Origin: a virus
Length of the DNA: 6,150 nt
Reading direction: 5' to 3' (one strand)
Virus record (IMG/VR): IMGVR_UViG_3300031088_000007
Coordinates: 1 to 6,150 of that record
A model generated the notes under the pieces. That model did not search any database and had not been told where the DNA came from. It worked only from the letters and a program-made list of their open reading frames with translations. Within the stretch, counting starts at the first letter, position 1; each line of letters opens with the position of its first letter. This document shows positions 1 through 6,150 of this stretch, in pieces. A program made the translations under genes and the position numbers.

Positions 1-236
1 CGGTAGAAACCAAGGCCCGTCCTTCGGCGGTAAAAGCCCGTCCCTACGGGCGGTAGAAGCCAAGGCCCGTCCTTCGGCGGTAAAGGCCCGTCCCTACGGG
101 CGGTAGAAGCCAAGGCCCGTCCTTCGGCGGTAAAAGCCCGTCCCTACGGGCGGTAGAAACCAAAGCCCGTCCTTCGGCGGTAAAAGCCCGTCCCTACGGG
201 CGGTAGAAGCCAAGGCCCGTCCTTCGGCGGTAGAAC
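1..236. repeat. Tandem array of a 50-bp unit: 4 full copies plus a partial fifth, truncated by the window edge
   Basis: The unit cggtagaaaccaaggcccgtccttcggcggtaaaagcccgtccctacggg repeats at 1-50, 51-100, 101-150, 151-200 and 201-~236. Copies differ by A/G substitutions at unit positions 9, 14 and 35. Each unit is two related half-repeats of 27 and 23 bp, each carrying a short GC stem-loop (ccg-tcctt-cgg and gcccg-tcccta-cgggc). A 50-bp period is not a multiple of 3. Confidence 0.95.
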
Positions 237-257
237 ATAGGCCAGTCCTCGTTAACG

Positions 258-282
258 AAAAAAAGGGGCACGAAGCCCCTTT
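258..282 (-). terminator. Rho-independent terminator after the major coat gene
   Basis: The minus strand reads AAAGGGGC-TTCGT-GCCCCTTT and the trailing T-run totals seven. The GGGGC/GCCCC stem is extended by A:T pairs. It lies about 20 nt downstream of the coat gene stop, as with the gVIII terminator in Ff phages. Confidence 0.8.
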
Positions 283-301
283 AGTGATCCAGCAGGCCGA
301 T

Positions 302-427
302 TTAACGGACGACGCGACGGACCCAGCCGACAGCCGCGATAGCGACCACGACACCGATGATGACGACACCAGCACCACCGATATCGGTGACGGCTGTACC
401 TGCTGCAGTTTTGATGGCTTCCAACAT
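302..427 (-). CDS. Major coat protein (pVIII-like, class II Pf3/Xf style, no signal peptide), 41 aa
   Basis: Hand translation gives MLEAIKTAAGTAVTDIGGAGVVIIGVVVAIAAVGWVRRVVR. It has an acidic/amphipathic N-terminus, an IGG motif, a hydrophobic helix and a basic C-terminal WVRRVVR. GGGAG lies 9 nt upstream. The ATG overlaps the upstream stop (TAATG). A terminator follows. It is absent from the supplied ORF track, apparently because it is short. Confidence 0.85.
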   Translation of the reverse strand: MLEAIKTAAGTAVTDIGGAGVVIIGVVVAIAAVGWVRRVVR

Positions 428-678
428 TATTCAGAACTCCCTGAGTGGTTTTGAACTACATTTATTAAGGCCCGAACACCCCACGCTGTCGCCCATACAG
501 ACACGATCATCGCGGAAATATAAGACCCATCTTCGGCAGAAAGAGACAGCAGGCTGTTTGCCAATTCAGCCCCACTTTGGACAACGTATTGGCACGTTGA
601 CAAATCTGTAGCAGTCGGGTCGAGACGCAGCACCAAGGAACCGTCTGGCTGCTGGACCGCCCGAACGCAACTAGCCAT
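427..678 (-). CDS. Hypothetical 83-aa protein with a C-terminal hydrophobic helix (candidate minor virion or assembly protein, pVII/pIX position)
   Basis: The ORF sits between the ssb-like gene and the coat gene and is coupled at both ends by TAATG overlaps. It has a hydrophobic segment ISAMIVSVWATAWGVRALINVV. No family was recognised by eye. Confidence 0.55.
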   Translation of the reverse strand: MASCVRAVQQPDGSLVLRLDPTATDLSTCQYVVQSGAELANSLLSLSAEDGSYISAMIVSVWATAWGVRALINVVQNHSGSSE

Positions 679-983
679 TACGCGGCCTTGCGCTCAGCTT
701 CAGCGAAGCCGGTAATGGTGGTTTTGTATTCGCCTTGATACGGACGCAGTTCGATGGTCACGTCGAGGACGCAGGGGAACTTCACACCGGCGCACGACTG
801 GACGACAGCGGCGCTCTGGACAGGCATCTCGATCAGCTCGTAACCGAAGCCCTCGACGGTCATGCCGCCCATCTTGCCGGGCTGGATCGGAGCCAACGTA
901 AGCATGTTCATCATGTCGTAGGGATTCTTGCTCTCTTTGCCAATACCATGGCCGCGCTTGATTCCAGCACAAAACAATTTCAT
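678..983 (-). CDS. Putative ssDNA-binding protein (pV-like), 101 aa
   Basis: Size and position (upstream of the coat module) fit pV. A strong RBS, GAGGGGGA, lies about 5 nt before the ATG. The stretch GIGKESKNPYDMMNML loosely recalls the Ff pV RQGKPYSLNEQL region. The function is inferred mainly from synteny. Confidence 0.6.
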   Translation of the reverse strand: MKLFCAGIKRGHGIGKESKNPYDMMNMLTLAPIQPGKMGGMTVEGFGYELIEMPVQSAAVVQSCAGVKFPCVLDVTIELRPYQGEYKTTITGFAEAERKAA

Positions 984-1008
984 GGGTTCCCCCTCAGTAA
1001 TTTAGGAA

Positions 1009-1034
1009 TTTAGGTAAAAACTAATTTACCTAAA
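1009..1034. promoter_or_regulatory. Perfect 10-bp inverted repeat (operator candidate) in a divergent intergenic region
   Basis: tttaggtaaa (1009-1018), 6-nt spacer, tttacctaaa (1025-1034). An additional direct copy of aatttagg lies at 998-1005. The repeat sits between the minus-strand ssb-like start (983) and the plus-strand RHH-like start (1099). On the minus strand, TAAATT -10-like hexamers overlap it. Confidence 0.55.
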
Positions 1035-1098
1035 AAGTAATGCAGCGAGGCAAATACTAATTCGCCTAAACTACTACGTCCAGTTTTTTAGTTTCCGT

Positions 1099-1296
1099 AT
1101 GGCCATGAAGACAACCTCCACCCTGAACGTTTCACCCGGTTTGCATAAAATCGTGAAGGTTGGAGCAGCAGAAAACGGCTGGAAACTGGGAGAATATGCC
1201 GATGCGGTAATAGAAATTGGCCTAAAACATTTGCAGGAAGTTAAGGAATTGATGGATTCGAGAACTAATGTTTCCACCGATGCAATTGACAAATAA
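1099..1296 (+). CDS. Putative ribbon-helix-helix (Arc/CopG/MetJ-like) DNA-binding protein, 65 aa; the only plus-strand gene
   Basis: MAMKTTSTLNVSPGLHKIVKVGAAENGWKLGEYADAVIEIGLKHLQEV fits a beta-strand (STLNVS), helix A, G-containing turn and helix B pattern. The composition is charged and protein-like, whereas the antisense ORF 1074..1316 is Ser/Cys/Phe-rich. No clear Shine-Dalgarno was seen. The gene lies in a low-GC island. Confidence 0.5.
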   Translation: MAMKTTSTLNVSPGLHKIVKVGAAENGWKLGEYADAVIEIGLKHLQEVKELMDSRTNVSTDAIDK

Positions 1297-1302
1297 AGTG
1301 TC

Positions 1303-2427
1303 TCAAAATGGCACAATTTTTTGCAGATGATTGAAGTACCCAGCTTTGATCAGGCGCTTTGAGTCAGAGCCGGAGTCGAGCGCCTTGCATATCTCTTCGG
1401 GAGTGTTGCCCAATTTCAACAGGCTATGTACCAGAGAGCCGTACGAGTTGCGAGCGTTGAGCTTCATCTTTTCGATTTCGGCCTCAGTCTCCGTCAACCT
1501 CAAGGCAGGCCGGACCCCGTCAGCAAGCCCAATCACGCGAGCGCAGAACGGGTAAGCCCCGGCGAAGTACTCGTCACGCCGAAAGAGCATCGCGTACTGG
1601 TCACTATCCAAGTCGCGGTCAGCATTGGTATACCGCACCTCTGCACGCAGCCACTCAACCACAGACACGTCACCTACGCACCCGACAGACCCGTCGATCC
1701 TGTACGAGACGACATCTAGCTCGGTCTGGTCTTCCAGCCACTGAGCAGGCAGCTTGCCGAACTGCTCAAGCCCCTTCTCGTAAATGCAAATACGCTTGCT
1801 ACTGGATGGCGCACCAACGTACAAAGTCCTCCCCATGTTGCCGTATGACCCTTCGGAGCCGTGACGTTGACAGGAAGGCTTACGTCCCCCTGCTTTCAGC
1901 TGAAACTCACCAGCAGCCAATGCAGCCTCTGCATCATCGTAAGTGACCTCCCCGTAGTAGAAATCGAGCGCGTAGTCGATTCGGGTCAATCTTGCGCGCA
2001 CCTCAATTAGCATGTGCTGGACAAGCTCGACCCTGTAATCACACCATTGCTTGCAGGCAGCACCGGAGAAGGAAACGAAATTCCGCCCATGCGGAGCACC
2101 CCATGCCATCAAACCGATGTTCTCGCCGTTTTGCATCAGCTGAGCTGATTTTGGGTACCCTTGCCAACCGCGGGGTTGTTCACGGAATTGAAGATCGAGA
2201 GTGAACGATTCAGCATAACGTTGCAATTCGGCAACGGGTTGCATTGAAGTAAAAGAAAGGTAATCTATCTTGCATTTTTGGCTACTTTGAGCCTGAAAAA
2301 TGGCAATTTGGGGGGGGGAAACTAGGTTACCCCCCGTGTTACTAGACGGGGGGCCGAAGTTGGCGACTTCGGAAAGGTCGAGAGAATCGACGTCAAAATC
2401 TGAAAAACCGTCTACAATTCCGGTCAT
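1303..2427 (-). CDS. Rolling-circle replication initiator, Rep_trans type (CTXphi RstA / pT181 RepC-like family)
   Basis: Motifs read by eye: IDYLSFT, TRIDYALDF, TLYVGAPSSSKRICIYEKG and WLRAEVRY. The track start at 2433 is a TTG. I prefer the ATG at 2427 (MTGIVDGF...), which has AGGG 7 nt upstream. The CDS contains a C9 homopolymer. Confidence 0.8.
   Translation of the reverse strand: MTGIVDGFSDFDVDSLDLSEVANFGPPSSNTGGNLVSPPQIAIFQAQSSQKCKIDYLSFTSMQPVAELQRYAESFTLDLQFREQPRGWQGYPKSAQLMQNGENIGLMAWGAPHGRNFVSFSGAACKQWCDYRVELVQHMLIEVRARLTRIDYALDFYYGEVTYDDAEAALAAGEFQLKAGGRKPSCQRHGSEGSYGNMGRTLYVGAPSSSKRICIYEKGLEQFGKLPAQWLEDQTELDVVSYRIDGSVGCVGDVSVVEWLRAEVRYTNADRDLDSDQYAMLFRRDEYFAGAYPFCARVIGLADGVRPALRLTETEAEIEKMKLNARNSYGSLVHSLLKLGNTPEEICKALDSGSDSKRLIKAGYFNHLQKIVPF
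2300..2308. repeat. G9 (C9 on the coding strand) homopolymer inside the rep N-terminal region
   Basis: The plus strand reads tttgggggggggaaa. The coding strand reads GTT TCC CCC CCC CAA (VSPPQ). A complementary C6 run lies at 2320-2325. Confidence 0.9.
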
Positions 2428-2502
2428 TGGCAAGCCCTAAGCTATTTGTCAATCAACCCCGGGATGCGTCAACATCGCCGGGATTTTTCGTTTCTAAGGT
2501 TC

Positions 2503-2519
2503 CCGTCCCTGAGGGACGG
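2503..2519. promoter_or_regulatory. 7-bp stem / 3-nt loop hairpin in the rep-upstream intergenic region (origin element candidate)
   Basis: The sequence is ccgtccc-tga-gggacgg. The cccgtccct string (2502-2510) is the same 9-mer that forms the core of the 50-bp tandem array. Confidence 0.5.
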
Positions 2520-2531
2520 TCTGCATACACT

Positions 2532-2553
2532 GGGGAGGATGATCACCTACCCC
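2532..2553. promoter_or_regulatory. 22-bp imperfect dyad in the rep-upstream intergenic region
   Basis: ggggaggatgatcacctacccc has outer GGGG/CCCC arms. The core GG(A)TGATCACC is a perfect 10-bp palindrome apart from one extra A. Function unknown. Confidence 0.4.
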
Positions 2554-2633
2554 TAACTACCGACACGCACCAACACAAACGCTCACAATTGCTAGACTCA
2601 CCCGTCTGAGTGGTTTAGCAGGAAAGAGGTGTT

Positions 2634-2909
2634 TTAGCGTTTCCTCAACAAACGATCCCGCAGGATACGCTCGACCGCCTGACCCAGCGTCAAATCCTCT
2701 GCATCAGACTTTTTCCGATCCACGTAAGCACGGAGAGCGCAAGCGACCTCTTGGTCAAGATCGAGCGTCATGGTCTCAAGACCAGCAGCCGCTAACCGAG
2801 CACGATACGCAGCCATACGACTAGCACCAGTAGCAGCCTTGCCAGTGGCCGGACGCCCCCGACGCTTTGCAACGCCGGGCAGTTCCATTGTTACCTCATC
2901 CTTGCGCAT
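2634..2909 (-). CDS. Small basic putative DNA-binding regulator, 91 aa (N-terminal RGRP arm, possible C-terminal RHH-like fold)
   Basis: The N-terminus KRRGRPATGKAATGASRMAAYRARL is basic. The C-terminus MTLDLDQEVACALRAYVDRK...LTLGQAVERILRDRL fits a strand-helix-helix pattern. AGGGGGA precedes the ATG at 2909. An alternative start at 2888 (MELPG) is preceded by GAGG. Twin palindromes and a TATAAT box lie directly upstream. Confidence 0.6.
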   Translation of the reverse strand: MRKDEVTMELPGVAKRRGRPATGKAATGASRMAAYRARLAAAGLETMTLDLDQEVACALRAYVDRKKSDAEDLTLGQAVERILRDRLLRKR

Positions 2910-2932
2910 AATTCCCCCTATCCAATAAATCT

Positions 2933-2938
2933 ATTATA
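2933..2938 (-). promoter_or_regulatory. Consensus -10 box (TATAAT on the minus strand) upstream of the regulator gene
   Basis: Plus-strand attata at 2933-2938 reads TATAAT on the minus strand, about 24 nt upstream of the ATG at 2909. It abuts the proximal palindrome. No good -35 was found at 16-18 bp spacing. Confidence 0.5.
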
Positions 2939-2939
2939 C

Positions 2940-2951
2940 GTCACTTGTGAC
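2940..2951. promoter_or_regulatory. Operator candidate O1: perfect 12-bp palindrome GTCACTTGTGAC
   Basis: GTCAC-TT-GTGAC lies immediately upstream of the TATAAT box, in the promoter spacer position on the minus strand. Confidence 0.6.
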
Positions 2952-2970
2952 AGGAATACGGGTTTTATTT

Positions 2971-2984
2971 CGTCACTTGTGACG
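2971..2984. promoter_or_regulatory. Operator candidate O2: the same palindrome, extended to 14 bp (CGTCACTTGTGACG)
   Basis: This is an exact second copy of cgtcacttgtgac, 32 bp (about 3 helical turns) from O1. Confidence 0.6.
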
Positions 2985-3004
2985 GTTATTTTATGGGGAA
3001 GTTT

Positions 3005-3053
3005 GGACCCCCGGTCCTCGCGCCCGGCGGTGCGGGCGCGGTCCCTCGGGTCC
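3005..3053. other. GC-rich compound stem-loop just downstream of the zot-like stop
   Basis: The outer stem is ggaccc (3005-3010) with gggtcc (3048-3053). The inner 8-bp stem is cgcgcccg (3019-3026) with cgggcgcg (3033-3040), with a 6-nt loop. An alternative small hairpin is ggacc-ccc-ggtcc (3005-3017). No U-tract follows on the minus strand. Confidence 0.5.
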
Positions 3054-3054
3054 A

Positions 3055-4269
3055 CTATGGCGCAGCAGGAGCAGGAACCGTAGCAGTCCTGACATTAGGC
3101 CGATTAGGTGGCCCGGTTTCGGTATCAGCAGCAGGCCGCATAGGGCCAGAAAGCGTGTCAGGAGCCTCGTTAAAGGCGATGACCTGTGGCGCACCATAGT
3201 TCTGACGCAAAGGCACATCAGGCGTCGCCTGCAGTGTCTGAGCACTCCTATTGGCTGTCTGTTCGTCACGACGCGCAGGCTCAGGGTCAAAATCCATGAA
3301 CCGACCATTGCGCGCGATCGACATGCACATGTTGAAATCAATATCCATCGGCGTAGCCTGCTGCGTATAGCACTTACACCGGATCTCTTTGCCGGCGACA
3401 GAGACAGATCCGATCTGCACACACATCGCCGGCACAGGCACCCGCACAGGCACTGTCAAAGCGTCATATTTCGGCGCAGTCTCAGGAAGGGACACTACGC
3501 GAGGCGTCTGATTGAACATGTACTTTTTGGCGTCAGCAACCGGATCGACCTCATCTGGCGGTGAAGCCTGAGAAACGTTCGCCGTATCGACCACGTTCAC
3601 AGCACCGGGGCCGCCGAAATCAGCAGAGTGCTGGTCAGGTTCTTTCTCATAGCGAGACGCGTATTTCTTCATCACGAACCAGCCTGAGAAGATGACCAGG
3701 AGGACGAACCCAATCGCGAGGAAAATCTTGGCGGGGATGGCACGCTTGACGGTGTGGACTTCAGCACTCTTGTAGTAGCCGAACACCTCCTTTGGATATT
3801 TCCACTTGAACGGAATAGCGGACTTTTGCGCGGCCTGATTTTGGGGAGCGGGGTTACAAGCGGACCATTCGTAAATCGTCGCCCGGTTCATGCCGAACTT
3901 ACGAACAGCGTGGAAATGCTGCCCGACGAGCTGGCGAACAAAGTTGTCGACCAAGGAAGGATGCTGCGTGATCAGGTAAATGTCGATGCCCTTGTGCCGG
4001 TGCGTAGCAAGCTCGTCGTAATGAGCAGGGAGCTTGGCGCCATTGGGCTTCTTCGGGAACACAAATTGCGCCTCATCGAGAACGACGATGGACCCTGCAG
4101 GGCAATCCATCCATTCCTCGGGCTTTTCTAGAGCAGTCCAAGGAAGGTTCAAGTCCTTGATGTTGTTGTAGAAAACTTCGCGCTGTTCGAGCTCGGCTTT
4201 GCGCTTGATAAACCACAACGCGTAGAGAGTTTTGCCGTTACCCGGCAGGCCAGTAATCAGCGTAATCAT
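3055..4269 (-). CDS. zot: Zot / pI-like phage assembly ATPase, 404 aa
   Basis: The N-terminus MITLITGLPGNGKTLYALW carries a Walker A motif (GLPGNGKT), and IVVLDEAQ is a Walker B motif. A central TM helix is IFLAIGFVLLVIFSGWFVM. The C-terminal domain is Cys-containing with a Pro/Ala-rich tail. The start overlaps the upstream stop (ATGA). Confidence 0.9.
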   Translation of the reverse strand: MITLITGLPGNGKTLYALWFIKRKAELEQREVFYNNIKDLNLPWTALEKPEEWMDCPAGSIVVLDEAQFVFPKKPNGAKLPAHYDELATHRHKGIDIYLITQHPSLVDNFVRQLVGQHFHAVRKFGMNRATIYEWSACNPAPQNQAAQKSAIPFKWKYPKEVFGYYKSAEVHTVKRAIPAKIFLAIGFVLLVIFSGWFVMKKYASRYEKEPDQHSADFGGPGAVNVVDTANVSQASPPDEVDPVADAKKYMFNQTPRVVSLPETAPKYDALTVPVRVPVPAMCVQIGSVSVAGKEIRCKCYTQQATPMDIDFNMCMSIARNGRFMDFDPEPARRDEQTANRSAQTLQATPDVPLRQNYGAPQVIAFNEAPDTLSGPMRPAADTETGPPNRPNVRTATVPAPAAP

Positions 4270-4565
4270 TTAAGCACCATCTTTTTGAGCGTACCGCCAA
4301 GCGCACGCATCGTGAGGGAGACAGCAACGGCAGAAAACACCACGGACAGGGCCTTGTCCATCCAGAGGTAGCCGACGAGCTGGAGAGCATCAGCAGGCAT
4401 CCCACGGACACCACTGATTGCAGCGTCCTTGAGAAAACCGATACCAGTATCGATGCCCTTGTAGCTGACGAAGCCAACGCCGAGGGCGAGGATAGCGCGA
4501 CCGATCAAGGTAGCCATCGACGCGGCCAGCGCGCCCATGAGGGCAGGAATGAAGAGTGCAAACAT
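4266..4565 (-). CDS. pVI-like small integral membrane protein, 99 aa
   Basis: The protein has multiple hydrophobic helices (MFALFIPALMGALAASMATLIGRAILALGVGFV, ALSVVFSAVAVSLTM). It occupies the typical pVI/Ace position between the pIII-like and zot-like genes. AAGGG lies 6 nt upstream of the ATG. It may belong to the small membrane protein family found upstream of zot genes, which would need an HMM check. Confidence 0.7.
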   Translation of the reverse strand: MFALFIPALMGALAASMATLIGRAILALGVGFVSYKGIDTGIGFLKDAAISGVRGMPADALQLVGYLWMDKALSVVFSAVAVSLTMRALGGTLKKMVLK

Positions 4566-4568
4566 GAT

Positions 4569-5972
4569 TTACCCTTGAAGGACAGAACGCGACACGATCA
4601 TGTACGCGAGGATGAGAGCGCAGGCCATGACGACACCGCGCAAAGGCTGGATGTTGGTGCAAAGCTGCCCGAACTCGACAGTCACAGAGCGCCCCATCAC
4701 AGTCATGGTTTTGTTAGGCAGGCAGGACCCACCACCGATGAAGCCTGTCTGATCTAGGCCGGGCTTGCTGAGGTCAATCTCAGTACCCTTCATCGTCTCT
4801 TCGATCTTCGCTTTCATGGGATCAGCACCCGAGAGGATCGAGTTACCAAGGGCAGTTTGAGGCGATGCTTTCAACGCGTCCTCATCAGCCTTACCCCTAC
4901 ATTCCATGGCAGCGGCCGCACGCAGAGTAGCGCACTGGACAGCATCGCCAACGCACTGAATCTGGCCACAGGTACCAGTGACAGAACCTTCACGACACAC
5001 AGAAAGATTGGGATTGGTCTTGCACAGATCGTATTTGTCATCCTCAGTAGGACGGTCAGCTTTACCAGCGGCACCGGAAGGAGTAGCAGAGGTGTCAGCG
5101 GTACCAGACGTTGTCTTTGTACCGTCCGGTTTCGTGGCTGTAACCGTAACGGTCTTCGTCGTGGAGCCATCAGCGTTTGTCGTTATGACGGTCTTCGTGT
5201 TGGTGGTGGTGCCATCCGCAGCCGTCTCGTTTTTCTCCGTCTCAGTTTTCGGCTGCACGGGCTTAGCCGGAGGCGTCGAACCTGTACCGATGCACATGGG
5301 GATGCCTGACAGACTCATACCCGCGTGAACGGTACCAGCTGGACATGGCCCCTTGCCGGGGTCGTCAGTCGGTTTAGGCGGGTTCTCGATAGGGGGCGAC
5401 TTCACAGGAGGATCGGCAGGGACCTCCGGGGTATCGTTGCCACCGACGCCGGGCTTGTCCTCACCAGTGAATTTCTCTCCAGTGCGCTTCACCATCCACA
5501 TGCAGTAGGAGCCTGTTGCAGACTTCCGGCAGACCATCATTTCCATGGCGGTGACAACACAGCCAGCGTAGCTACCGGGCGCGCTATACGGGCCAGCAGC
5601 TGGATAGTTCCAGCGGCGAACGATAGGGTTTTTGTCAGCACATGGATCAGGGACGACCTCGGGAGGAACCGCTTTCGCCTGGCATCTTCCGAGAGCATTG
5701 TTGAAGTACGGTTCGTCGGCATAGCAAGTCCGAGGATAGACCGCCAGATACCGCTGCTCATCAGCACCGATTTTTCCGTAGCAATCCGACCCTCCAATCA
5801 AGCGAGTGAATACGATTCCATTCACGGCACCACGTTTGCAAGCGTCAAGGGCAGTAGTTCCATTAACCCCTGAGCTGCTGCCGTAATAGCTGTCAGCGGC
5901 AAAAGCCAGCCCAGAGAACAGAGCAAGCGAGAAGCCAACAAGACCCCATGCAAAGAGCCGTAGCGCCCTCAT
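4569..5972 (-). CDS. pIII-like minor coat / adsorption protein, about 467 aa from the preferred start
   Basis: The preferred ATG at 5972 gives a classic signal peptide, MRALRLFAWGLVGFSLALFSGLAFA-AD. After it come a Cys-rich N-domain, a Pro-rich linker (PEVPADPPVKSPPIENPPKPTDDP), a Thr-rich repetitive linker, a Cys-rich C-domain and a C-terminal anchor VVMACALILAYMIV. The track start at 6062 is a GTG abutting the repeat array and is unlikely. Confidence 0.75.
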   Translation of the reverse strand: MRALRLFAWGLVGFSLALFSGLAFAADSYYGSSSGVNGTTALDACKRGAVNGIVFTRLIGGSDCYGKIGADEQRYLAVYPRTCYADEPYFNNALGRCQAKAVPPEVVPDPCADKNPIVRRWNYPAAGPYSAPGSYAGCVVTAMEMMVCRKSATGSYCMWMVKRTGEKFTGEDKPGVGGNDTPEVPADPPVKSPPIENPPKPTDDPGKGPCPAGTVHAGMSLSGIPMCIGTGSTPPAKPVQPKTETEKNETAADGTTTNTKTVITTNADGSTTKTVTVTATKPDGTKTTSGTADTSATPSGAAGKADRPTEDDKYDLCKTNPNLSVCREGSVTGTCGQIQCVGDAVQCATLRAAAAMECRGKADEDALKASPQTALGNSILSGADPMKAKIEETMKGTEIDLSKPGLDQTGFIGGGSCLPNKTMTVMGRSVTVEFGQLCTNIQPLRGVVMACALILAYMIVSRSVLQG

Positions 5973-6028
5973 CGCAGCAAAATCCAGAACGCACCACACA
6001 CAGCAATAATCACAGCGAAACCAGCCAT
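5969..6028 (-). CDS. Candidate 19-aa hydrophobic micro-protein upstream of, and coupled to, the pIII-like gene
   Basis: Hand translation gives ATG GCT GGT TTC GCT GTG ATT ATT GCT GTG TGT GGT GCG TTC TGG ATT TTG CTG CGA TGA = MAGFAVIIAVCGAFWILLR. A perfect GGAGG (6038..6034) lies 5 nt upstream. The stop overlaps the pIII-like ATG (ATGA). Not in the ORF track. Confidence 0.45.
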   Translation of the reverse strand: MAGFAVIIAVCGAFWILLR

Positions 6029-6067
6029 AGACACCTCCACACGTTAATGAAAATTGAAGCACCAGAA

Positions 6068-6150
6068 CCCGTCCCTACGGGCGGTAGAAACCAAGGCCCG
6101 TCCTTCGGCGGTAAAAGCCCGTCCCTACGGGCGGTAGAAGCCAAGGCCCG
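6068..6150. repeat. The same 50-bp tandem repeat array, entered from the other side
   Basis: A partial unit cccgtccctacggg lies at 6068-6081. Then 6082-6131 is identical to unit 1 (1-50), and 6132-6150 is identical to 51-69. The variant positions allow only this one register against the left-end array. Confidence 0.95.

Follow-up and report, generated by a model that had tools for sequence, protein, structure and literature searches.

A tandem hairpin array in inoviruses and a small rolling-circle plasmid, probably an accessory and mobile cassette

The circular inovirus contig IMGVR_UViG_3300031088_000007 of IMG/VR (positions 1 to 6,150; "the window" below means this whole stretch of 6,150 nucleotides) carries a tandem array of short GC-rich hairpins between its coat-gene terminator and the gene for a pIII-like adsorption protein. 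Comparison with related replicons shows that the array is independent of the replication initiator (Rep), the origin and the structural genes of the phage, and that close relatives do not need it. It is very probably an accessory, laterally mobile and strand-specific cassette, confined, as far as we have seen, to rolling-circle replicons. We hold this view because the array is missing from close relatives, because near-identical units occur with unrelated Reps, and because the identity between units exceeds that of the sequences flanking them. A short, sequence-defined and structurally constrained hairpin module has been placed repeatedly, by natural selection or by some mobilising mechanism, and in one orientation, in unrelated rolling-circle replicons of one community. 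We know of no described tandem hairpin array common to inoviruses and plasmids, and a literature search for one shared by the two returned none.

Arrays of this kind accompany three unrelated Rep families (Rep_trans/phrog_453, phrog_3419 and Rep_1/phrog_11698), and the carriers are all rolling-circle replicons. The inovirus L112, whose Rep_trans protein is 37% identical to that of the window, has 3.5 copies of a 27 + 23 nt pair between the coat gene and a small open reading frame (ORF), and carries another, variant array some 100 nt upstream of rep, separate from the first. The inovirus L001, with an HUH-type Rep of phrog_3419, has 7 units of 29 nt between the coat terminator and the small ORF, and L111, a relative of the L001 replication module, has 7.7 units of 29 nt downstream of rep, where L001 has none; the Rep of L001 and L111 goes with a phiX-like CTTG nick motif. 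A circular plasmid of about 2.5 kb (L019/L107) with a Rep_1 initiator (phrog_11698) has at least 8 units of 29 nt exactly between the rep stop codon and the next ORF. Every carrier keeps 3.5 to 10 units, of 23, 27 or 29 nt, and the units are 96 to 100% identical between carriers, whereas the neighbouring genes are 45 to 70% identical at the nucleotide level. At four kinds of site (between coat terminator and small ORF, upstream of rep, downstream of rep, and between rep and the next ORF in the plasmid) the array points the same way with respect to the genes, and the sense strand, which bears the array hairpins, also bears the candidate nick motifs. The carriers probably share a community and a host.

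An earlier note on this DNA, made from the sequence alone, had held that absence of the array from close relatives that replicate and package normally would speak against a functional element of the phage, and close relatives without the array do exist, the cultured Ralstonia phages PE226 and p12J among them. Neither the array nor its motif was found in L013, whose Rep is 93% identical and whose regulators and rep-proximal intergenic region match those of the window, in relatives of 46 to 61% Zot identity, including L008 and L016 (60 to 61%), or in PE226 and p12J. Only one carrier was met among 80 Zot relatives in IMG/VR, the other 79 having no array, and the prophage relatives in Duganella and Glaciimonas genomes have none either. 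A covariance model of the unit detected no remnants or single copies in 650 kb of sequence from relatives. These absences, from L013 as well as from relatives that share the assembly machinery (L008, L016, PE226, p12J and 79 of the 80), argue against a core phage function, whether plus origin, Rep iterons or an essential packaging signal.

Among the plasmids, the sisters L108 and L109 (Rep 88% identical) and L110 (85%) have no array, and their stop and start codons overlap at the site where it lies in the carrier; L108 and L109 come from the same samples as the contigs L003 and L007 of the window lineage. The insertion site shows only a 5-nt ATGAT repeat, which is uninformative as a target-site duplication since it also restores the stop and start codons. 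The insertion carried non-repeat flanks with it, and resembles recombination rather than transposition.

The unit is rare in the collections that we searched. Rfam gave no family match at E ≤ 10 in the window, L001 or L019, only noise, and a 117-nt synthetic array had no blastn match (E ≤ 1) among PLSDB plasmids and GenBank phages. The exact 20-mer core occurs in two contigs of the JGI metagenome collection, one of them bacterial-looking (L018). When a repeat peptide derived from the array was compared with 5.8 billion proteins, only two ORFs were matched, which are the two new carriers, and none came from named genomes. Pattern scans of IMG/VR with the GTA unit and with a two-hairpin pattern returned L001 only, and a scan with the core of the 27-nt unit returned no match. 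The 18-nt GAA hairpin was found in IMG/VR as seven single copies in GC-rich tailed-phage contigs, after stop codons; these lack the flanking motifs, and we read them as generic hairpins of the terminator kind or as chance matches. The suggestion that the unit is a common host repeat of the repetitive extragenic palindromic (REP) kind finds no support in the JGI metagenomes (two hits), PLSDB, GenBank phages or proteins, which test it only in part. In L018 (reverse strand, 340-530), a contig with a LytTR response regulator, one exact 20-nt core lies in a long non-coding stretch, beside other hairpins that are each preceded by ATTCTRTTGGCTTY, resembling the array linker TTGGCTTC; this copy could be coincidental, or related to the unit and located on a chromosome.

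Structure of the array and its hairpin

The array and its immediate surroundings in the window are laid out as follows.

1-236, minus strand: main block of the array, alternating 27-nt (TACCGCCGAAGGACGGGCYTTGGYTTC) and 23-nt (TACCGCCCGTAGGGACGGGCYTT) units in the coding-strand reading (Tandem Repeats Finder, register and covariation)
6064-6081, minus strand: pIII-proximal end of the array, the last 23-nt unit, which is finished by bases 1-3 over the circular join
6082-6150, no strand: terminal overlap of the circular assembly, an exact duplicate of 1-69 and no additional array
233-257, minus strand: spacer with a decayed unit (GAGGACTGGCCTATGTTC), leading from the terminator to the first intact unit (unit alignment)
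252-282, minus strand: intrinsic terminator of the coat gene, an 8-bp GC-rich stem at 262-282 followed by a T-run
6029-6067, minus strand: spacer from the array to the next gene, with the ribosome-binding site GGAGG at 6034-6038 (read from the sequence)
5969-6028, minus strand: small hydrophobic conserved ORF of 19 codons (MAGFAVIIAVCGAFWILLR), with its own ribosome-binding site and a stop codon that overlaps the pIII start (ATGA)

Bases 1-69 are repeated exactly at 6082-6150; the contig is therefore circular, measures 6081 bp once this 69-nt terminal overlap is removed, and closes inside the array. Tandem Repeats Finder reports the repeat in two pieces, one at 1-232 (period 50, score 436, 4.6 copies with 96% matches) and the other at 6064-6150, and after removal of the overlap the array is about 250 nt long (6068-6081 plus 1-236), corresponding to 5 × (27 + 23) nt. 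On the coding strand the units read TACCGCCGAAGGACGGGC-YTTGGYTTC (27 nt) and TACCGCCCGTAGGGACGGGC-YTT (23 nt), and the nested structure and the A/G polymorphisms described in the earlier note are both seen in the unit alignment. The array begins about 20 nt past the coat terminator and ends about 40 nt ahead of the next start codon. The distance from the coat stop codon to the next gene, 354 nt, makes this the largest non-coding gap of the genome, as had been claimed (the others are about 200, 145 and 115 nt), and its location is indeed unusual relative to the Ff phages. The description of the array as lying between the coat terminator and the pIII module is right for the terminator, but on the other side the 19-codon ORF intervenes before pIII. 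Homologues of this ORF, of 19 to 21 codons, are found in the same place in L001 (MAGICIMLAVLGSFWILFRE), L112, PE226 and p12J (MEGYFV...AWILFS), unannotated in the last two, and the product is probably a small virion or assembly protein.

The array is not an assembly artefact, because it is internal to the circular contigs L003 and L004 (5 units each) and L005 (3 units), which come from other metagenomes and whose terminal overlaps fall elsewhere, in pIII. In four more samples the contigs break off in the first or second unit, and about 10 samples of the window lineage retain the array. Copy number varies between related genomes (3 against 5 units): the window and L005 encode identical proteins and differ in length by exactly 100 nt, or two units. 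Because of this difference, and because the ends of the window lie within the array, the copy number of the window is to be read as a lower bound or an estimate. Arrays of this kind interrupt short-read assemblies of such phages, and can yield false circular closures and false copy numbers. Coding potential was considered and rejected, in agreement with the earlier argument from the 50-bp period, since the frame shifts from one unit to the next at a period of 29 or 50 nt and carriers differ in the ORFs that span their arrays. A CRISPR locus is likewise excluded: the units abut head-to-tail without spacers, no ORF has a cas domain, and Rfam gives no CRISPR-DR match.

Read on the coding (viral plus) strand, the conserved module is (C/T)TAC-CCG-CC(C)-GNA-GG(G)-A-CGG-GC, about 20 nt long, with a GC stem of 5 to 6 bp, a bulged A and a 3-nt loop; linkers of 3 or 9 nt separate the modules. 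When 13 variants of the unit, drawn from all carriers, are aligned, the stem CCG-CC(C)/GG(G)-A-CGG is paired in 73 of 73 cells, with compensatory changes from C-G to U-A (L001 and L111) and from C-G to G-C (L112), and with a paired deletion in the 27-nt unit, where one C and one G have been lost together. The bulged A is invariant in the 13 variants, the flanking TAC and GGC are invariant or nearly so, and the loop is GAA, GTA, GGA or GCA in all variants except that of L111 (AAA). The energy model prefers a different stem, GCCCGT/ACGGGC, which is paired in 78% of cells and shows no compensatory change. Folding z-scores are -1.8 and -2.2 for the whole region and range from -0.1 to -3.3 for single units. 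As judged from these alignments, the conserved bulged hairpin is supported by covariation, among few variants, and not by thermodynamics. The GC stem-loop that had been noted in each half-repeat is present and predicted to fold, although its z-scores are ordinary, its stability is modest and the conserved stem is not the energy-preferred one. Hairpins of the form d(C-GNA-G) are unusually stable DNA mini-hairpins. The same stability is stated for the GNA mini-hairpin of the phiLf origin (bioRxiv 10.1101/2023.12.30.573655).

Two other elements lie near arrays or resemble them. A single 7-bp hairpin without a bulge, CCGTCCC-TCA-GGGACGG, is found at 2503-2519 (minus strand) of the window, in the intergenic region upstream of the rep promoter region; it shares its 3' arm (GGGACGG) with the array hairpin. 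This single hairpin is part of the Rep module, is kept in L013 with an A-to-G change that gives a G-T wobble, and may be an ancestor or a functional cousin of the array unit. In L112 the hairpin array and the small ORF are separated by an unrelated T-rich tandem array (2805-2908, 24 nt × 4.4, GGCTTTTATTTCGCTTTTCGCTTC), which comes directly after the hairpin array.

Possible roles of the array

A phage-specific replication or integration element, that is, a set of Rep iterons, the plus or minus origin of this phage, or an attachment site for XerCD, is very improbable, and the comparative data largely refute it. Such an element would suit the largest non-coding region of the genome, its build of repeated hairpins, and the one similar hairpin upstream of rep. 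Iterons, however, would be expected to co-vary with Rep, and three unrelated Rep families carry the array, while L013, with its nearly identical Rep and the same intergenic region, does not. The prophage relatives in Duganella and Glaciimonas have no array, and no dif-like sequence was found, the best match to E. coli dif in the whole window having 13 of 28 mismatches and lying outside the array; this is a weak test, with the E. coli site standing in for that of the host. For the plus origin there is a better candidate outside the array, conserved separately from it:

2330-2353, minus strand: hairpin CCCCCCGT-CTAGTAAC-ACGGGGGG within the 5' portion of rep, a candidate for the plus-strand origin (conservation)

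In inoviruses of the Rep_trans type, among them PE226, L008, L013, L039, L056, L058, L067, L070, L076 and L102, the stem of this hairpin is invariant and its loop reads NNNGTAAY. As the plus-strand origin or nick site of this inovirus Rep type it is a strong candidate.

Origin-like hairpins were also seen in other replicons. In L001 (reverse strand, 2725-2765), and also in L009-L012, L014, L016 and L017, Zot is closely followed by a GC hairpin of 7 to 8 bp that has a GNA loop and then TAAACTTGTAYTAGGGACA. It resembles a CTTG nick site of the phiX174 type and is probably the plus origin that goes with the phrog_3419 Rep. In the plasmids, the variable 5' part of rep contains GAAGCCCCTTGGTACTACTGCG, which is conserved at the nucleotide level (1135-1160 in L107; also in L108, L109 and L110) and is a candidate double-strand origin of the cryptic Rep_1 plasmids of 2.1 to 2.5 kb. 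This plasmid family has 137 relatives in the protein database, nearly all on contigs of about 1.4 to 5.5 kb. Three further ideas about the array were tried and rejected. The unit is not a mimic of the CTTG nick site, as the plasmid linkers are CGTGG, ACTGG or AGTGG; no promoter was found in or beside the array; and the array does not replace a family-wide intergenic hairpin with a GNA loop, which for most relatives is the phiX-like nick site of another Rep. The replacement idea survives, as a weak hint, only for L013 and L015, where a CCCGAAGGG hairpin lies in a segment of about 60 nt that is missing from the window.

To our knowledge, the cis signals of single-stranded DNA (ssDNA), such as the complementary-strand origin and the packaging signal, are unknown for nearly all filamentous phages outside the Ff group. 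The role that we tentatively prefer for the array, as a possibility, is that of an auxiliary signal on the plus strand that resembles a single-strand origin (sso). The cassette would be inserted, in one orientation only, into the few permissive intergenic sites of unrelated rolling-circle replicons, where its hairpins would fold in single-stranded form and act as a cis signal dependent on host factors. Folding in ssDNA is proposed because every carrier has an ssDNA stage and because the hairpin is always on the displaced or packaged plus strand. The most likely role of such a signal would be that of an auxiliary initiation site for the complementary strand, at which stable hairpin landmarks on DNA coated with single-stranded DNA-binding protein would let the host priming machinery start; the tandem copies would provide redundancy, and would expand and contract by slippage. 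The array matches sso in being a non-coding structured element on a rolling-circle replicon, independent of Rep, and in having a fixed orientation relative to the displaced strand at the four kinds of site, a small sample. Its accessory and exchangeable distribution, by analogy, also resembles theirs: single-strand origins are orientation-specific, and the rolling-circle plasmid pHP13 is still maintained without one (PMC4595007). The hairpin core is retained across linkers and units of differing length, and recognition of the hairpin fits this better than mimicry of an RNA of fixed length. A host-dependent ssDNA signal of this kind would offer a handle on the host factor that converts or packages these genomes, and a portable part for Burkholderiales phagemids.

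A number of observations weigh against an sso-like role. Known sso are single, larger and complex structures, whereas the array consists of tandem mini-hairpins, in which a reading made without a reference set of sso sequences detected none of the known sso motifs. The array-less sisters share all other non-coding DNA and so presumably already own a complementary-strand origin, and the array would presumably be a second and redundant one. The predicted stability of the hairpins is unremarkable, and the AAA loops of L111 break the GNA rule. The orientation argument comes down to about four independent sites, a result expected by chance roughly 1 time in 8, and same-sense orientation fits a role at the RNA level equally well. 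Patchy presence, shifting positions and the two arrays of L112 are equally expected of a selfish mobile repeat.

The array could indeed be a selfish or neutral hairpin satellite of no benefit to the phage, comparable to REP elements or miniature inverted-repeat transposable elements, although we regard this as rather doubtful. It would be mobilised in trans by an ssDNA-specific enzyme of the host or of a co-resident element, or by copy-choice between co-replicating single strands, and would persist only at places that tolerate insertions; slippage would lengthen and shorten the arrays. Presence and absence among close relatives, including sister plasmids from the same samples, fit such a satellite, as do the different positions in related genomes (L001 and L111), the pair of arrays in L112, and the all-or-none distribution, with no remnants or single copies in relatives. 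Each site is one of the few permissive gaps in a compact genome, and four of the six come directly after a T-run or terminator; the high identity of the units would be expected after recent spread, and the chromosomal-looking L018 has the 20-mer core near TTGGCTTY motifs. Yet we identified neither a transposase nor a donor, the motif is very rare among the collections that we examined (two metagenome contigs, none of the plasmids and GenBank phages, 2 of 5.8 billion proteins), and the plasmid insertion with its non-repeat flanks looks like recombination. Direct repeats are prone to deletion in ssDNA replicons, and nevertheless 3.5 to 10 units are kept, in about 10 samples of the window lineage, while the invariant bulged A and the compensatory changes are signs of constraint, which could however serve mobilisation instead. 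If the array is selfish, it represents a repeat family specialised on ssDNA replicons, and a marker of genetic exchange between phages and plasmids.

A 29-nt unit with a stem-loop of about 16 nt has the size of a type I-E/I-F CRISPR repeat, and an element acting as RNA, transcribed by read-through, is a further explanation, which we consider unlikely. It would be a decoy of a host repeat RNA, in the manner of RNA anti-CRISPRs (Racr) or pseudo-ToxI, or a series of weak terminators or stabilisers that set the ratio of coat to pIII. The array is always in the sense orientation, the 23-nt units of the window lineage end in GGGC-TTTT like weak terminators, the single 18-nt hairpins of the GC-rich tailed-phage contigs stand after stop codons in terminator-like positions, and known RNA decoys are likewise accessory non-coding tandem repeats of variable copy number on phages and plasmids (PMC10651486, PMC5449768, PMC3401426). 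Little transcript is expected, however, because the array lies just past a strong intrinsic terminator in three phages, and we found no promoter-like site beside it. A U-tract is missing from the plasmid units, a unit that comes in lengths of 23, 27 and 29 nt is hard to see as the mimic of a defined repeat, the neighbouring ORFs of the carriers include no toxin or cas gene, and Rfam gave no match to CRISPR-DR, ToxI or others at E ≤ 10. Quite unlikely, in our estimate, is a portable packaging signal, whose plus-strand hairpins would be recognised by the inovirus assembly machinery and would let the plasmid hitch-hike in virions as a natural phagemid. In Xanthomonas phages of the phiLf type the signal is an interchangeable GC-rich hairpin of 20 to 26 nt with an optional bulged A (bioRxiv 10.1101/2023.12.30.573655), the 3' arm GGGACGG is shared with the rep-adjacent hairpin of the window and L013, orientation is strand-specific, and plasmid relatives and phage co-occur in the same samples. 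Against this, L008 (g83 72% identical), L016 (Zot 61%), PE226 and p12J package without an array, the assembly proteins of the carriers are only about 40 to 60% identical to each other, the hairpin does not fit the phiLf consensus GGX(A/-)CCG(C/T)G, and ten tandem copies, or two arrays in L112, are unexpected for a signal that acts at one virion tip. A portable signal for the handling of ssDNA that serves any rolling-circle replicon of the host, and in particular a packaging signal that the 2.5-kb cryptic plasmid captured from co-resident filamentous phages, its ssDNA intermediate being exported in virions, is improbable to the same degree; the latter would amount to the first sequence-defined packaging signal for this inovirus group and to a natural phagemid or satellite system.

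Gene layout and relatives of the phage

The window has the gene set of a small inovirus, with all main ORFs on the minus strand.

302-427, minus strand: major coat protein, 41 aa (Phage_Coat_B)
427-678, minus strand: 83-aa minor protein g83
678-983, minus strand: RstB-like ssDNA-binding protein
1099-1296, plus strand: 65-aa ORF
1303-2433, minus strand: Rep_trans replication initiator (Rep_trans/phrog_453)
2634-2909, minus strand: 91-aa regulator reg91
3055-4269, minus strand: Zot/pI
4266-4565, minus strand: pVI (DUF2523)
4569-5972, minus strand: pIII-like adsorption protein (mechanical ORF 4569-6062)

The mechanical pIII ORF starts with GTG at 6062; the true start is likely the ATG at 5972, after which a typical signal peptide (MRALRLFAWGLVGFSLALFSGLAFA/AD) is encoded. 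The closest cultured relatives, PE226 and p12J, have about 40% Zot identity, at the protein level only, and megablast with the whole window found no match among GenBank phages. A Zot scan of a genome collection found prophage relatives in Duganella and Glaciimonas genomes, and because of these the host probably belongs to the Burkholderiales.

Between the window and L002, L003, L004 and L006, pIII is only 81 to 88% identical, with the differences clustered in its N-terminal part, whereas the remaining proteins are 94 to 100% identical; L015 has a pIII that is 72% identical to that of the window on an otherwise different backbone. These comparisons point to exchange or diversification of the receptor-binding module. 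Two likely regulatory sites were also observed. At about 2940-2985, upstream of the 91-aa regulator, the inverted repeat GTCACAAGTGAC occurs twice, once on either side of a TATAAT box; both copies are conserved in L013, and the region is a likely operator and promoter. At 999-1041, between the divergent 65-aa ORF and the RstB-like gene, there are repeats of 8 and 16 nt (AATTTAGG / TTACCTAAA), the likely operator of a ribbon-helix-helix regulator; the 65-aa ORF has a weak Omega-repressor-like match (E = 0.008).

Comparison with known systems

No family considered here could be matched to the array by its defining features. Iterons, like the array, are direct repeats in the non-coding region of a small replicon, but they co-vary with Rep, whereas the array is common to three unrelated Reps and missing beside the nearly identical one of L013. 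ToxI, pseudo-ToxI and Racr are accessory non-coding direct repeats of plasmids and phages, in sense orientation and of variable copy number, as the array is. Their units are of fixed length (34-45 or 28-37 nt), in contrast to the 23, 27 and 29 nt of the array, which follows a strong terminator and has no toxin or cas neighbour; in a search for a type III antitoxin, no toxin domain was found in the neighbouring ORFs of any carrier, and Rfam gave no ToxI-type match. The packaging hairpin of phiLf is also short, GC-rich and located on inovirus DNA, with an optional bulged A in its stem, and its signal is interchangeable (bioRxiv 10.1101/2023.12.30.573655), but the array has another sequence and 7 to 10 tandem copies, lies mostly between coat and pIII, occurs in a plasmid as well, and is absent from close relatives.

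The closest likenesses are to REP elements and to sso. REP elements and their clusters, the bacterial interspersed mosaic elements (BIMEs), share with the array a short, GC-rich and imperfect palindrome with a bulge and an adjacent conserved tetranucleotide, and are intergenic, often placed after terminators, clustered and polymorphic. In REPs GTAG stands 5' of the hairpin, whereas the array shows the mirror image, with CTAC on the 5' side and hence GTAG 3' of the hairpin on the opposite strand, and the clusters of BIMEs alternate in orientation, whereas the array units are all direct and head-to-tail. REPs are chromosomal, with hundreds per genome, and mobilised by REP-associated tyrosine transposases (RAYT); the array unit was seen on small rolling-circle replicons and nearly nowhere else that we searched. 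The sso of plasmids (ssoA, ssoU and ssoT) and the complementary-strand origins of Ff, G4 and phiX174 are, like the array, non-coding, structured, specific for strand and orientation, dispensable, and modular between Reps, and they depend on the host and not on Rep, as we propose for the array. The known sso are single structures of about 50 to 200 nt, whereas the array is made of hairpins of 14 to 16 nt in direct tandem, with no sequence similarity found between them. An sso promotes synthesis of the second strand and keeps ssDNA from accumulating, and described types have conserved motifs such as RS_B and CS-6. The complementary-strand signal of phiX174 and G4 lies in an intergenic gap beside the capsid genes, away from the plus origin. 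By analogy with these systems, the cassette would work most like an sso module, and it looks most like a REP element.

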